Assembly: GCA_021469345.1 (NCBI GenBank)
Contig: GCA_021469345.1_3049.1
DNA length: 64,000 bases
From: a phage
Direction: 5' to 3' (one strand)
Positions 10,010-45,054 of this stretch are shown in pieces; positions within the stretch are counted from its first letter, which is position 1; each line of letters opens with the position of its first letter. The position numbers and the translations under genes are program-made. The notes beneath the pieces were generated by a model. The model was not told the origin of the DNA and did not search any database. It saw only the letters and a list, made by a program, of their open reading frames with translations.

Positions 10010-10725
10010 AAAAATATTTTACTATCTATAAAACTGAAATATTAAATTTAAAGACAGGTATTAAGAAATACTATTATGGTCGACATATAACTAATAACAT
10101 CAATGATTCGTATGTTGGTAGTGGAAATTATATAGAACGTGTAAAAGTGTCAAATGACCACATATTATCAAAAACGGTTTTAGAAGTTTTTGATAATTAT
10201 GATAAAATGGTACAAGCTGAAATATTATATATCATGGCAGGTAAATTGAAATATGGAAAAAACTGTGTTAACCTGTCATACGGGGGTGAAGGAGGAAAGG
10301 TTGCAGATGAAACTAGGATAAAATGCAAAAAGCATTCTATAAATTTATGGAAAAATCCTAATCATATACAGCATATGAAGAAAAAGATGAAAGAGGTCAC
10401 ATCCACGCCGGAAGCTAAATTAAACACTTCAATAAAAACTTCGCAACGATATAAGGACCCAGTTTTTGTTAGAAAAGTTAGTAATATTATTAAAAAGAAA
10501 CTAAGCAATCCTACAGTAAAAGAAAAGCATATTAATGGAATTAAAGCTGCAAAGCGTTCTCATTTAACTATATGGCAGTATGAAGATGAATTATTCGAGC
10601 TTTGGAAAGAAACTAAATATGGATGGAGAAAATTTACAAAGGAAGCTATAAAACACGGATATCCAAATGAACCGTATCGTAGTATGGTATCAACTTTTCA
10701 GAAAAGACATTTAGAAGAATCCTAA
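10006..10725 (+). CDS. GIY-YIG family homing endonuclease (Seg-like)
   Basis: 239 aa; N-terminal YFTIYKTEILNLKTGIKKYYYGRH...YVGSG matches GIY-x10-YIG module; basic C-terminal region. Confidence 0.75.
   Translation: MKKYFTIYKTEILNLKTGIKKYYYGRHITNNINDSYVGSGNYIERVKVSNDHILSKTVLEVFDNYDKMVQAEILYIMAGKLKYGKNCVNLSYGGEGGKVADETRIKCKKHSINLWKNPNHIQHMKKKMKEVTSTPEAKLNTSIKTSQRYKDPVFVRKVSNIIKKKLSNPTVKEKHINGIKAAKRSHLTIWQYEDELFELWKETKYGWRKFTKEAIKHGYPNEPYRSMVSTFQKRHLEES
10006..10725 (+). mobile_element. free-standing homing endonuclease gene (seg-type)
   Basis: GIY-YIG ORF embedded between accessory genes, ATGA-coupled to the upstream ATPase gene. Confidence 0.55.
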
Positions 10726-25063: not shown

Positions 25064-26266
25064 ATGAAAGTATGTATTTTTATGGCTCGAGGTCTTGAAG
25101 GTTGCGGTGTAACTAAATTTTCTCTTGAGCAGCGTGATTGGTTTATTAAAAATGGTCATGAAGTAACTTTGGTTTATGCTAAAGATAAATCATTTACCCG
25201 TAATTGCGCGCATGATTATAAATCATTTTCAATTCCGGTTTTATTGGCAAAAGAATACGATAAAACACTTAAGCTGGTAAATGATTGTGATATTCTAGTT
25301 ATCAATTCAGTTCCTGCTACTTCAGTTGAAGAAGACACTATTAATAACTATAAAAAAATTATTGATAACATTAAGCCTTCGGTTCGTGTTGTAGTTTATC
25401 AGCATGACCATTCTTCTCTTTCTTTGCGTCGAAATTTGGGATTAGAAGAAACTGTTCGTCGAGCTGATGTTATTTTTAGCCATTCTGATAATGGTGATTT
25501 TAATAAAGTTTTAATGAAAGAATGGTATCCGGAAACTGTTTCTTTGTTTGATGATATTGAAGAAGCACCGACCGTATATAACTTTCAGCCTCCTATGGAT
25601 ATTGCGAAGGTTCGATCAACCTACTGGAAAGATGTTTCTGAAATTAACATGAATATCAACCGTTGGATTGGTCGTACTACTACATGGAAAGGTTTTTATC
25701 AGATGTTTGATTTTCACGAAAAACATCTTAAACCCGCAGGACTAAGTACTATTATGGAAGGTCTGGAACGTTCTCCAGCGTTCATTCCTATTAAAGAAAA
25801 AGGAATTCCATACGAGTATTATCGTCTTCATCAAGTAGACCAAATTAAAATTGCTCCTAATTTGCCAACGCAAATTCTTGACCGTTATGTAAATAGCGAA
25901 ATGCTTGAACGCATGAGTAAATCCGGATTTGGTTATCAGTTGAGTAAGTTGGATAAAAAATATCTACAGCGCTCTTTAGAATATACTCATCTCGAGCTTG
26001 GTGCATGTGGAACAATTCCGGTATTTTGGAAATCTACTGGCGAAAATTTAAAATTCCGTGTTGATAATACTCCGTTAATTTCACATGATAGCGGTATCGT
26101 TTGGTTTGATGAAAATGACATGGAATCAACATTTGAACGTATTAAAGAACTGTCATCTGACCGAGCTCTTTATGACCGTGAACGTGAAAAAGCATATGAA
26201 TTTTTGTATCAGCATCAAGATTCAAGCTTCTGCTTTAAAGAACAGTTTGACATTATTACAAAATAA
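25064..26266 (+). CDS. a-gt: DNA alpha-glucosyltransferase
   Basis: 400 aa; MKVCIFMARGLEGCGVTKF...; matches remembered T4 alpha-gt along its length. Confidence 0.95.
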   Translation: MKVCIFMARGLEGCGVTKFSLEQRDWFIKNGHEVTLVYAKDKSFTRNCAHDYKSFSIPVLLAKEYDKTLKLVNDCDILVINSVPATSVEEDTINNYKKIIDNIKPSVRVVVYQHDHSSLSLRRNLGLEETVRRADVIFSHSDNGDFNKVLMKEWYPETVSLFDDIEEAPTVYNFQPPMDIAKVRSTYWKDVSEINMNINRWIGRTTTWKGFYQMFDFHEKHLKPAGLSTIMEGLERSPAFIPIKEKGIPYEYYRLHQVDQIKIAPNLPTQILDRYVNSEMLERMSKSGFGYQLSKLDKKYLQRSLEYTHLELGACGTIPVFWKSTGENLKFRVDNTPLISHDSGIVWFDENDMESTFERIKELSSDRALYDREREKAYEFLYQHQDSSFCFKEQFDIITK

Positions 26267-36262: not shown

Positions 36263-36514
36263 ATGGAAACTTTAGTAGCAGGTTCAATTTTTATGGTTTT
36301 AGTTTCAGGTGTGTTGGCTATTATTATATACATGCTTCCATGGTTTATCGCCTTGATGCGTGGGTCAAAATCGACAGTAGGAATCTTTTTCACATCTTTA
36401 CTGTTTAACTGGTCAATTATTGGTTGGTTTATTACATTTATTTGGTCAATTGCAGGTGAAACTAAAAAGTCTGCACAACCAAATCAAGTAATTATCATCA
36501 GAGAGAAGGAATGA
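36263..36514 (+). CDS. imm: superinfection immunity membrane protein Imm
   Basis: 83 aa, two TM helices; size and position between 43 and 42. Confidence 0.8.
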   Translation: METLVAGSIFMVLVSGVLAIIIYMLPWFIALMRGSKSTVGIFFTSLLFNWSIIGWFITFIWSIAGETKKSAQPNQVIIIREKE

Positions 36515-36660
36515 AAAGCAAAATTATAACAGTGTTGCTTTTAATCTTGATGATTATAATAAGTATATACTATAGTGTAACGGTTCCTCTTATGATTCCA
36601 ACTATTATTTTAGGTTGGGGTTTATTACTGTTACAAGTTAAATATGAATGTATCAATTGA
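36511..36660 (+). CDS. small membrane protein (49 aa)
   Basis: ATG 36511 overlaps imm stop; strongly hydrophobic. Confidence 0.4.
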   Translation: MKSKIITVLLLILMIIISIYYSVTVPLMIPTIILGWGLLLLQVKYECIN

Positions 36661-36667
36661 GGTTTAA

Positions 36668-37408
36668 ATGATTAGTGACTCTATGACAGTTGAAGAAATC
36701 CGTCTTCGTTTGGGGCTTGCATTAAAAGAAAAAGATTTCGTAGTTGATAAAACCGGTGTTAAAACTATTGAAATTATTGGCGCATCATTTGTAGCAGATG
36801 AACCGTTTATTTTTGGCGCTCTTAATGATGAATACATTCAGCGTGAACTTGAATGGTACAAGTCTCAAAGTCTGTTTGTTAAAGATATTCCAGGTGAAAC
36901 ACCAAAGATTTGGCAGCAGGTAGCATCTTCTAAAGGCGAAATTAACTCGAATTATGGCTGGGCTATTTGGTCAGAAGATAACTATGCCCAGTATGATATG
37001 TGTTTAGCTGAACTTGGTCAAAATCCTGATTCTCGACGTGGTATCATGATTTATACTCGTCCATCCATGCAATTTGACTACAATAAAGATGGTATGTCAG
37101 ATTTCATGTGTACTAATACAGTACAGTACCTGATTCGTGATAAAAAAGTCAATGCAGTAGTAAGCATGCGCTCAAATGACGTGGTCTTCGGATTCCGTAA
37201 TGATTATGCATGGCAAAAATACGTATTAGATAAATTAGTATCTGATTTGAATGCCGGCGATTCAACTCGTCAGTATAAAGCAGGTTCTATTATATGGAAT
37301 GTTGGAAGTCTTCATGTATATTCTCGTCATTTTTACTTGGTTGATCATTGGTGGAATACTGGCGAAACTCATATTGTGAAAAAAGATTATAACGGTGAGT
37401 GGAAATGA
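36668..37408 (+). CDS. 42: dCMP hydroxymethylase gp42
   Basis: 246 aa; thymidylate-synthase-like fold; matches remembered T4 gp42. Confidence 0.95.
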   Translation: MISDSMTVEEIRLRLGLALKEKDFVVDKTGVKTIEIIGASFVADEPFIFGALNDEYIQRELEWYKSQSLFVKDIPGETPKIWQQVASSKGEINSNYGWAIWSEDNYAQYDMCLAELGQNPDSRRGIMIYTRPSMQFDYNKDGMSDFMCTNTVQYLIRDKKVNAVVSMRSNDVVFGFRNDYAWQKYVLDKLVSDLNAGDSTRQYKAGSIIWNVGSLHVYSRHFYLVDHWWNTGETHIVKKDYNGEWK

Positions 37409-38247
37409 TTCAATTCGTAATTCCAAGCTATCAGCGTGTTGGGGCAGTTTCTGCCCTTGATATGTTTCCAACTGATTATGAACCTCATATTGTAGTGCGT
37501 GAACACGAAGAAAAAGCTTATTATGATGCCTATGGGTCTAAAGCTAAAATTGTAACTATTCCTGATGATGTAAACGGAATTGCCGGTACTCGTAAAGCAA
37601 TTACTGATATGTATGCAGGTCAACGAATCTGGATGATTGACGATGATACTACTATTCGTATGAGTTCAATGCGAAAAAGAGATGATCGTCGTTGCGTAGA
37701 TAAAGTCAATCAATTAACCCGTGAACAATTCTACGAATTGATTCAATACGTTGAAGATGCTATGGATTGCGGGTATTATCATGGTCATGCTCGTCTACCT
37801 ATTTTTAAAATTACTTCATCTTGGGGTAATTATCGTGAAAATTCATATGGATTCACGAATACATGGTATGACCTTGGAAAACTTACGACAGAACAAATTG
37901 GGTATGGAAAAATTGATTTGTGCGAAGATATGTATGCATTTCTCAATTTAATTAATCAAGGTTATCCGCATTTGGCTTTGTTCAAATATCTGGTTGTATC
38001 TGGAAAAGCACAAGCTCCTGGCGGGTGTAGTTCAATTCGTAGTAATTCTAAACATAATAGAGCGCTTGAGCAAATCAATAGAGAGTTTCCAGAGCAAGCT
38101 CGTTGGAAAACATCGAATATTGAAAAACGAAAATCGTTGGGTGAAGAAGACGAGCCATTAAAGGTTCTTCGCATGTGTGTTTCGCGTAAAGAAAAATCAG
38201 AAGCATTTCATAAGTTTAATGCTATTCATCCAATAGCAGTTGATTAA
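37399..38247 (+). CDS. glycosyltransferase (GT-A like, DxD) at the beta-gt locus; possibly a beta-alpha glucosyltransferase as in T2/T6
   Basis: 282 aa; IWMIDDDTT acidic motif; not alignable by eye to T4 beta-gt (351 aa, MKIAIINMGNN...); locus is about 0.2 kb shorter. Confidence 0.65.
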   Translation: MEMIQFVIPSYQRVGAVSALDMFPTDYEPHIVVREHEEKAYYDAYGSKAKIVTIPDDVNGIAGTRKAITDMYAGQRIWMIDDDTTIRMSSMRKRDDRRCVDKVNQLTREQFYELIQYVEDAMDCGYYHGHARLPIFKITSSWGNYRENSYGFTNTWYDLGKLTTEQIGYGKIDLCEDMYAFLNLINQGYPHLALFKYLVVSGKAQAPGGCSSIRSNSKHNRALEQINREFPEQARWKTSNIEKRKSLGEEDEPLKVLRMCVSRKEKSEAFHKFNAIHPIAVD

Positions 38248-38302: not shown

Positions 38303-38359
38303 ATGATGCCTATGGAAAAAATGAATGTCTATTGCAGATTTAAAATCCCGTTTGATTAA
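38303..38359 (+). other. 18-codon upstream ORF overlapping the uvsX start
   Basis: Strong SD GAGGAAAATATA + ATG 38303, out of frame with uvsX, ends TAA 38357-38359. Confidence 0.3.
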
Positions 38360-39506
38360 AGCTTCCACTTCTAAAATGACTGCTGAACTGACTACATCTA
38401 AATTCTTTAATGAAAAGGATGTAATCCGTACAAAAATTCCAATGCTCAATATCGCTATTTCAGGTGCGATTGACGGTGGTATGCAGTCTGGTTTAACTAT
38501 TTTCGCAGGGCCTTCTAAACACTTTAAATCAAATATGTCTTTGACTATGGTTGCGGCATATTTGAACAAATATCCTGACGCGGTTTGTCTATTCTATGAT
38601 AGTGAATTTGGTATTACTCCAGCTTATTTGCGATCCATGGGAGTTGACCCGGAACGAGTAATTCATACGCCAATTCAGTCAGTTGAACAGCTGAAAATTG
38701 ATATGGTGAACCAGCTTGAAGCTATTGAGCGCGGTGAAAAAGTCATTGTATTCATCGACTCAATCGGTAATATGGCTTCTAAGAAAGAAACTGAAGATGC
38801 CTTGAATGAAAAATCTGTGGCAGATATGACTCGTGCTAAATCACTGAAGTCATTATTCCGTATTGTTACTCCTTATTTTAGTATTAAAAACATTCCATGT
38901 GTTGCGGTTAACCACACAATTGAAACAATTGAAATGTTTAGTAAAACCGTGATGACAGGTGGTACAGGCGTAATGTATTCGGCTGATACCGTATTCATTA
39001 TCGGTAAGCGTCAGATTAAAGATGGTTCTGATCTTCAGGGGTATCAATTTGTTCTAAATGTAGAAAAATCTCGTACCGTTAAAGAAAAAAGTAAATTCTT
39101 TATTGATGTTAAATTTGATGGTGGTATCGATCCTTATTCTGGATTGTTAGATATGGCTCTAGAATTAGGATTTGTAGTAAAACCTAAAAATGGCTGGTAT
39201 GCTCGTGAATTTCTTGATGAAGAAACCGGCGAGATGATTCGCGAAGAAAAATCTTGGCGTGCAAAAGATACCAATTGCACTACATTCTGGGGTCCTTTAT
39301 TTAAGCATCAACCATTCCGAGATGCTATTAAACGTGCTTATCAGTTAGGTGCTATTGATAGTAATGAAATTGTTGAAGCTGAAGTTGATGAATTGATTAA
39401 CTCAAAAGTTGAAAAATTTAAATCTCCAGAAAGTAAAAGTAAATCAGCAGCTGATTTAGAAACTGACCTCGAGCAGTTAAGTGATATGGAAGAATTTAAT
39501 GAATAA
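38325..39506 (+). CDS. uvsX: recombinase UvsX (RecA-like)
   Basis: 393 aa; Walker A GPSKHFKS; N-terminus MSIADLKSRLIK vs remembered T4 MSDLKSRLIK. Confidence 0.95.
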   Translation: MSIADLKSRLIKASTSKMTAELTTSKFFNEKDVIRTKIPMLNIAISGAIDGGMQSGLTIFAGPSKHFKSNMSLTMVAAYLNKYPDAVCLFYDSEFGITPAYLRSMGVDPERVIHTPIQSVEQLKIDMVNQLEAIERGEKVIVFIDSIGNMASKKETEDALNEKSVADMTRAKSLKSLFRIVTPYFSIKNIPCVAVNHTIETIEMFSKTVMTGGTGVMYSADTVFIIGKRQIKDGSDLQGYQFVLNVEKSRTVKEKSKFFIDVKFDGGIDPYSGLLDMALELGFVVKPKNGWYAREFLDEETGEMIREEKSWRAKDTNCTTFWGPLFKHQPFRDAIKRAYQLGAIDSNEIVEAEVDELINSKVEKFKSPESKSKSAADLETDLEQLSDMEEFNE

Positions 39507-41841: not shown

Positions 41842-42135
41842 ATGAAAAAATTTATCTTTGCTACAATTTTTGCTTTGGCTTCTTGTGCTGCTCAGCCTGC
41901 TATGGCAGGTTATGATAAAGATTTGTGCGAATGGTCTATGACTGCGGATCAGACTGAGGTTGAAACTCAAATTGAAGCAGATATTATGAATATCGTTGAG
42001 CGCGATCGTCCTGAAATGAAAGCTGAAGTGCAAAAACAACTTAAGTCTGGTGGTGTAATGCAGTATAATTATGTTCTGTATTGCGATAAAAACTTTAATA
42101 ACAAAAATATCGTAACCGAAATCACAGGTGAATAA
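41842..42135 (+). CDS. sp: Spackle periplasmic protein (superinfection exclusion)
   Basis: 97 aa from ATG 41842 (RBS GAGGAG); signal peptide MKKFIFATIFALASCAAQPAMA. Confidence 0.8.
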   Translation: MKKFIFATIFALASCAAQPAMAGYDKDLCEWSMTADQTEVETQIEADIMNIVERDRPEMKAEVQKQLKSGGVMQYNYVLYCDKNFNNKNIVTEITGE

Positions 42136-42136
42136 T

Positions 42137-42769
42137 ATGATTTATTATATGCACAAAAATCCACCGTTTAAATACGGTAAATTTCCTGATGCACAATGTT
42201 ATAATATAACGCCTGATGAAAATAACCGTGGATATCTTATTGGCACAATTTTTGTAATTGTTAAAGATAACGAAATCGTTGCCTGGGCAGATTTTAAAGG
42301 TACAACACATGATGTTAATCCGGTGCCTTTCACATATTACAATATAATGGATTTGGCATATGATTATAATTGGTTTAATCATGACAATTTAGTTCATATT
42401 GAAGGCGTAGGATTTGACATCTCTTATTCTAGTTATTCGTTGTGCCCTATGAGCCGAGCTTATAAAGAGCCTGAATATTTTTCATTTCGTCGGCGTGTAG
42501 ACTTTAAACGCAGTACAGAGTATGTCGGTGGAATCTTTGTTAAAGATAATCGAATTACTCGCATTATTTATCCTTTGGGCTTTGGTCAAAAAGATATTGA
42601 TGTTGATTTAGACTTTACTGAAAACAGCATTAATCATATTGCTTCTGTGTATTTTGATATTGATCACAAAATTGTAATATGTGGATATGAATTACCATCC
42701 GAAAAACAGTCTAAAGTAAATGTTTCTATTGATGACCAAATTTTTAATGCTTTTATGAATAGAGGTTAA
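42137..42769 (+). CDS. hypothetical protein at the 61.2 position (AdfA-like, reported anti-DarTG factor)
   Basis: 210 aa from ATG 42137; positional correspondence only. Confidence 0.55.
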   Translation: MIYYMHKNPPFKYGKFPDAQCYNITPDENNRGYLIGTIFVIVKDNEIVAWADFKGTTHDVNPVPFTYYNIMDLAYDYNWFNHDNLVHIEGVGFDISYSSYSLCPMSRAYKEPEYFSFRRRVDFKRSTEYVGGIFVKDNRITRIIYPLGFGQKDIDVDLDFTENSINHIASVYFDIDHKIVICGYELPSEKQSKVNVSIDDQIFNAFMNRG

Positions 42770-44163: not shown

Positions 44164-44265
44164 ATGTCCTCCTTTAAATTAATATTTATCGCAAAACGTG
44201 TTAGTATTACTATCAAATACATATGATGAAGAATTGTATAATTCGTTTTTTGCTGCAATAAATGA

Positions 44266-45054
<789 letters not shown>

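Follow-up and report, generated by a model that had tools for sequence, protein, structure and literature searches.

A gene between gene 42 and uvsX of a phage genome is very probably a T2/T6-type beta-alpha-glucosyltransferase of the gentiobiosyl-hmC pathway

The window, i.e. the whole stretch of 64,000 nucleotides of phage DNA that has been analysed (NCBI GenBank assembly GCA_021469345.1, contig GCA_021469345.1_3049.1), carries an intact reading frame between gene 42 and uvsX, which we refer to as ba-gt. The features that are discussed below are located at the following positions:

25064..26266, plus strand: alpha-gt, DNA alpha-glucosyltransferase, which makes the alpha-glucosyl-hmC acceptor (Pfam AGT, 5e-236; PDB 1XV5, 7e-257)
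36668..37408, plus strand: gene 42, dCMP hydroxymethylase, which makes the hmC precursor (Pfam Thymidylat_synt, 1e-15)
37399..37404, plus strand: in-frame GTG-GAA extension given by the ORF finder, probably untranslated
37405..38247, plus strand: ba-gt / g-gt / TAGT coding sequence, 280 aa plus stop (from the ORF and homology)
37435..37437, plus strand: R11, after the first beta strand (IPSYxR), present in 47/47 TAGT homologues
37639..37647, plus strand: D79-D80-D81, the GT-A DxD motif, invariant in 47/47, directly after strand E74-78 of the AF2 model
37924..37929, plus strand: E174-D175, candidate catalytic base (xED-like, at the start of helix 174-184), by its position in the AF2 model
38325..39506, plus strand: uvsX, the downstream neighbour (Pfam T4_UVSX_C, 5e-39; RecA)

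The list of open reading frames contains the frame at 37399..38247 on the plus strand, 282 aa from a GTG codon and situated between gene 42 and uvsX, that the first-pass annotation had reported; the frame itself is confirmed, but the length of 282 aa is probably two residues too long. The ATG at 37405 overlaps the TGA of gene 42 (37406-37408) as ATGA, the sequence GGTGAG (37394-37399) ends 5 nt 5' of this ATG, and a gene of 843 nt is annotated from the equivalent ATG in T2 (two records), TB37, EL, Geo, BGP, Solly, QOTSP and CP. On these three grounds, ba-gt most likely starts at ATG 37405, encodes 280 aa and is translationally coupled to gene 42, and a start at GTG 37399 has been dropped; all residue numbers of ba-gt are counted from ATG 37405.

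On its 5' side, gene 42 is preceded by the genes of gp43 DNA polymerase, imm.1 and imm, and by a 49-aa ORF, while gp40 and gp41 are located, together with uvsX, on the 3' side of ba-gt; the gp42 of the window is 96% identical to T4 gp42. The syntenic slot of T4 is occupied by b-gt (1056 nt), with the length of 351 aa that had been stated beforehand, followed by segA; unlike T4, the window has no segA between ba-gt and uvsX. A weak match to T4 SegA, a GIY-YIG homing endonuclease, occurs at a distance from the locus, at 10066-10701 (22% identity, E = 1e-6). The 49-aa ORF, located at 36511-36660 between imm and gene 42, is hydrophobic and is the same as the 150-nt 'Phage protein' of the Durham phage annotations; in the records of T4, T2 and T6, this gap of approximately 150 nt contains no annotated gene. 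Further downstream, the frame at 42128-42769, between gp41 and the primase, is a counter-defence gene for anti-DarT factor A, AdfA (Pfam PF23813, 1.5e-137).

Between 36400 and 38500, the numbers of candidate promoters (14, against 9.6 +/- 2.7 expected from shuffles) and terminators (1, against 1.0 expected) are not above expectation. A G+C-rich hairpin, GGGGCAG-TTT-CTGCCCT (37441-37457), followed by a T-rich stretch, is located within the first 20 codons of ba-gt, and its stem is identical in the T6 sequence; since a single site is also the chance expectation, the hairpin may mean nothing.

The alignment of the window protein with the T2 and T6 enzymes, a check that the first-pass annotation had suggested, has returned 276/280 identical residues for the T2 enzyme (99%) and 274/280 for the T6 beta-glucosyl-HMC-alpha-glucosyltransferase (98%). 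A match at 1e-89 to PHROG 842, 'beta-glucosyl-HMC-alpha-glucosyltransferase', spans profile positions 3-269 of 270, and Pfam PF20691 (TAGT) is matched with 38.1 bits, against a gathering cutoff of 27.5, over model positions 2-205 of 205. An identical 280-aa protein is already public (AYP69773.1 and others, 40 contigs). The frame of ba-gt is intact, and the comparison with TB37 shows 17 synonymous and 2 non-synonymous codon differences; synonymous differences greatly outnumber non-synonymous ones in every comparison of ba-gt alleles, and therefore the gene is functional and under purifying selection.

A profile search has returned 51 homologues, almost all of them with PF20691, and an AF2 model has been built on an alignment of 47 sequences (pLDDT 91.5, pTM 0.90). 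According to this model, the fold of the window protein is GT-A: a single Rossmann-like alpha/beta/alpha domain that resembles known GT-A structures; the T6 TAGT has been assigned to GT-A by AF3, as a sister to GT2 (PMC13216743). The acidic motif IWMIDDDTT (37627-37653), previously described as GT-A-like, proves to be a real DxD motif, being invariant after strand 74-78. Residues I6 and R63 are also invariant across the 47 aligned sequences, R212 is kept in 46 of 47 homologues, and D175, within the motif CEDMY, in 41 of 47. Because neither a solved structure nor in-vitro kinetics of any TAGT has been found, the roles of these residues in the active site are only inferred: the DDD motif would bind the divalent metal and the diphosphate of the UDP-sugar, while D175, on the basis of GT2-type enzymes, would be the catalytic base of an inverting GT-A enzyme. 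The identity of the protein, its fold, its conserved motifs, the synteny and the absence of beta-gt, described below, are findings of the present analysis.

The alpha-gt gene that the first-pass annotation had placed upstream, at 25064-26266, is confirmed by the Pfam and PDB matches listed above. T4 b-gt, on the other hand, has no counterpart: its comparison with the window protein by BLASTP gives no meaningful alignment (best E = 2.2), in agreement with the earlier judgement by eye, and a tblastn search of the whole window with T4 b-gt gives no match.

The steps of the pathway can be proposed as follows: gp42 would make hm-dCMP, and hmC would enter the DNA during replication; alpha-gt would transfer glucose from UDP-glucose to hmC in alpha linkage; and ba-gt would transfer a second glucose from UDP-glucose to the 6-OH of the first one, with inversion, i.e. 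in beta-1,6 linkage, giving gentiobiosyl-hmC. The beta-1,6 transfer from UDP-glucose onto alpha-glucosyl-hmC by the window protein is supported through near-identical enzymes, and no beta-monoglucosyl-hmC would be expected, because no beta-gt is present. For the enzymatic activity and for the DNA composition of the relatives, we rely on published work. In T2 and T6, which have alpha-GT and no beta-GT, the enzyme adds a glucosyl to alpha-glucosylated hmC, resulting in gentiobiosyl-hmC (PMC13216743). The DNA of wild-type T6 is not degraded by Brig1, while T6 delta-ba-gt has only alpha-glucosyl-hmC and a raised sensitivity to Brig1 (PMC11078745); the DNA of T6 delta-g-gt, with approximately 75% alpha-glucosyl-hmC, becomes a substrate of BapA (bioRxiv 10.64898/2026.02.25.707755). 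Ten Durham Tequatrovirus phages, which carry alpha-gt and, at the position of b-gt, TAGT, contain alpha-gentiobiosyl-mdC and no beta-glucosyl-mdC by HPLC/MS (PMC13390438); three of them (TB37, QOTSP and EL) are among the best nucleotide matches of the window.

Taken with the sequence identities, the PHROG 842 and PF20691 matches and the GT-A fold, the published genetics and the mass-spectrometric data on the relatives bear out the original proposal of a T2/T6-type enzyme: the gene is very probably a T2/T6-type beta-alpha-glucosyltransferase (ba-gt, g-gt; TAGT), i.e. a 280-aa, DxD-dependent enzyme of GT-A fold that works in the gentiobiosyl-hmC pathway. The gene is already known, is located where it is usually found, offers no new mechanism and belongs to textbook T-even biology.

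The locus had been framed as a departure from the norm represented by T4; the difference from T4 is real, but the norm is the reverse, ba-gt being the commoner gene. By megablast, 479 phage records contain ba-gt, with nucleotide identities of 90-98%; they are mostly of Escherichia / Shigella Tequatrovirus, and many of them are annotated as beta-glucosyl-HMC-alpha-glucosyltransferase or beta-alpha-glucosyltransferase. T4-type b-gt occurs in only 29 phage records, mostly of T4 and of phages nearly identical to it (RB55 and RB59, for example). In a survey of 753 GT-encoding phage genomes (PMC13216743, NAR 2026), the pair of alpha-GT and beta-GT occurs in 6 genomes, and alpha-GT or beta-GT plus TAGT is the usual state. 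The window is arranged as is normal for Tequatrovirus; it is T4 that stands apart.

Two other readings of the gene have been weighed against a T2/T6-type enzyme. A diverged or truncated T4 beta-gt, of GT-B fold and GT63/72 type, would agree with the label 'b-gt' or 'putative beta-glucosyltransferase' that some records give to the gene, but the shared genomic position is the only other point in its favour: given the failed BLASTP alignment, a GT-A rather than a GT-B fold and a different Pfam family, we regard this reading as having virtually no chance of being correct, and the comparisons of fold and sequence refute the T4 beta-gt form. It is also highly improbable that the enzyme uses a different sugar or acceptor, either by glycosylating bare hmC directly or as an arabinosyltransferase, as in RB69-like phages. 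TAGT homologues occur alone, i.e. with neither alpha-GT nor beta-GT, in 288 of the 753 phage genomes (PMC13216743), and therefore the wider family must include other specificities; the window protein, however, has 98-99% identity with enzymes that, when deleted, cause the specific loss of the second glucose, and it matches at 278/280 residues the enzymes of phages whose gentiobiosyl-hmC has been detected by MS. As regards arabinose, the arabinosyltransferases of RB69 and DLP3 match GT-B-type enzymes and not TAGT (PMC13326640), and the window has the gp42 hydroxymethylase and alpha-gt instead of a 5-hydroxycytosine/arabinose cluster. The clusters of approximately 65% identity belong to T4-like phages of Klebsiella, Citrobacter and Enterobacter that are annotated with ba-gt, and not to Mosigvirus; the arabinosyltransferase reading has been rejected.

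With a T2/T6-type enzyme as the preferred reading, the comparison of alleles is concerned with the proportion of mono- and di-glucosylated hmC. The Durham phages form a 'mixed' group (EL, BGP, Geo), in which hmC, alpha-glucosyl-hmC and gentiobiosyl-hmC occur at approximately 1:2:2, and a 'mostly gentiobiosyl' group (TB37, Solly, QOTSP, CP and others), with approximately 1/3 hmC and 2/3 gentiobiosyl-hmC (PMC13390438). In this comparison, from which the phages 'Some', EH2 and NR1 were left out, the ba-gt of the window is identical to that of TB37 and Solly at 278/280 residues, and at 277-278/280 across TB37, Solly, QOTSP and CP. The substitutions that separate it from TB37 are K46, which none of the ten reference and Durham alleles in the comparison has, and V50, the only one that is shared with the mixed group, where V50 is accompanied by M89I, R95K, C97R, V101I, A202S and Q203H. 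The alpha-gt of the window is 396/400 identical to that of TB37 and 365/400 identical to that of EL. Because both transferase alleles are nearly identical to those of the TB37 group, we predict, with uncertainty, that the DNA of this phage is T6-like, with approximately 2/3 gentiobiosyl-hmC, 1/4 to 1/3 bare hmC and little alpha-monoglucosyl-hmC.

Such near-identity does not guarantee a T6-like ratio, because T2, despite its 99%-identical enzyme, has historically been reported to contain only approximately 5% gentiobiosyl-hmC (bioRxiv 10.64898/2026.02.25.707755). We therefore have to consider that the orthologue of the window may be weak and its DNA T2- or EL-like, i.e. mostly alpha-monoglucosyl-hmC with a minor or equal gentiobiosyl fraction. 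This appears unlikely to us, but deserves some weight: the low gentiobiosyl content of T2 goes with a difference at only 4 of 280 residues, Dam is common to the window, T2 and the 1:2:2 group of EL, BGP and Geo (PMC13390438), V50 is common to the mixed group, and K46 is found in none of the compared alleles. Against it, the invariant R11, changed to H in T2, is kept in the window, the six other marks of the mixed group are missing, the alpha-gt is much closer to that of TB37 than to that of EL, and of the RE-like gene that is peculiar to the mixed group, only a 28-aa remnant is left.

The Dam-type N6-adenine methyltransferase is located at 44275-45054 (Pfam PF02086, 6e-51) and is 98.8% identical to the Dam of EL; Dam is also present in T2 and in the mixed group of EL, BGP and Geo, and is not present in TB37 and T6. 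Of the 186-aa 'restriction-enzyme-like' gene that adjoins Dam in EL, BGP and Geo, the window has only the 28-aa remnant, which precedes Dam at 44189-44272. The combination of TB37-type alleles with the Dam of the T2/EL group points to a natural recombinant, in which an alpha-gt and a TAGT of TB37 type would be joined to the Dam of the mixed group and T2, and which could tell the effect of the alleles from a Dam-linked cause of the ratio; we consider this a rather doubtful idea.

Residue R11, invariant in the 47 TAGT homologues and kept in the window, in T6 and in all Durham phages, is His in the T2 records AP018813 (L003:7283-8125) and LC348380 (L014:1295-2137), which may come from one stock. 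The R11H change of T2 could be a hypomorph, and could thus explain the 60-year-old difference between approximately 5% gentiobiosyl-hmC in T2 and 72% in T6; if so, the R11 allele of the window would be the wild-type comparator.

The two public T6 genomes carry a different lesion each in ba-gt. In AP018814 (L004:7135-7974), one Asp of the invariant DDD is lost in frame. In MH550421 (L002:3138-3980), codon 10 is changed from CAG to a TAG amber, and because of this in-frame TAG, 'ggt' is annotated with 261 aa, starting at M20. We have rejected 261 aa as the true length of the T6 protein: the short annotation arises from the TAG at codon 10, the alignment to the family models already begins at residue 2, and the family has an invariant R11. 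A supE host inserts Gln at UAG, and since the amber replaces a Gln codon, such a host would restore the wild-type T6 protein. When the truncated protein is used as the reference of the family, the first strand and R11 are missing from the analyses.

The presence of ba-gt tells which hypermodified cytosine the phage carries, and on this depends how sensitive the phage is to modification-dependent defences. In vitro, the Brig1 glycosylase does not degrade gentiobiosyl-hmC; the BapA deglucosylase removes no glucose from it, but GmrSD/BrxU-type enzymes still cleave it; the bare hmC that remains is the target of Brig3 and of McrBC-type systems. In the phage of the window, alpha-glucosyl-hmC would be expected to be partially masked from Brig1 and BapA, while GmrSD/BrxU-type enzymes would still be able to attack the DNA, and its bare hmC would leave it open to Brig3. 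This is of use for the annotation of phages and for the choice of phages against particular hosts.

Among the closest known systems, TB37, Solly, QOTSP and CP have a synteny identical to that of the window, down to the 49-aa ORF that separates imm from gene 42; TB37, however, lacks the Dam that the window carries, having none between genes 56 and 61. The ba-gt genes of T2 and T6 share with the window the slot between gene 42 and uvsX, the length of 280 aa, the ATGA overlap and the alpha-gt partner. K46 and V50 set the window protein apart from these two enzymes; its R11 is replaced by H in T2, and its Y40, D55 and R106 by N, G and H in T6. The window gene has neither the codon-10 amber nor the one-codon DDD deletion of the two T6 records. 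T4 beta-gt (GT-B, PDB 1JG7, PF09198) is unrelated to the window enzyme in sequence and in fold, yet the two have in common the slot, UDP-glucose as the donor, an inverting reaction (beta linkage) and a role in the hypermodification of hmC DNA; the acceptor is bare hmC for T4 beta-gt and, by its relationship to T2 and T6, would be alpha-glucosyl-hmC for the window enzyme. With the wider TET-associated glycosyltransferase family (PF20691), the window protein shares a full-length match, the GT-A fold, the invariant DxD, R11 and R63. It differs from this family in being paired with gp42, a thymidylate-synthase-like hydroxymethylase, instead of a TET/JBP dioxygenase, and in its acceptor, which would be a sugar that is already on the base.
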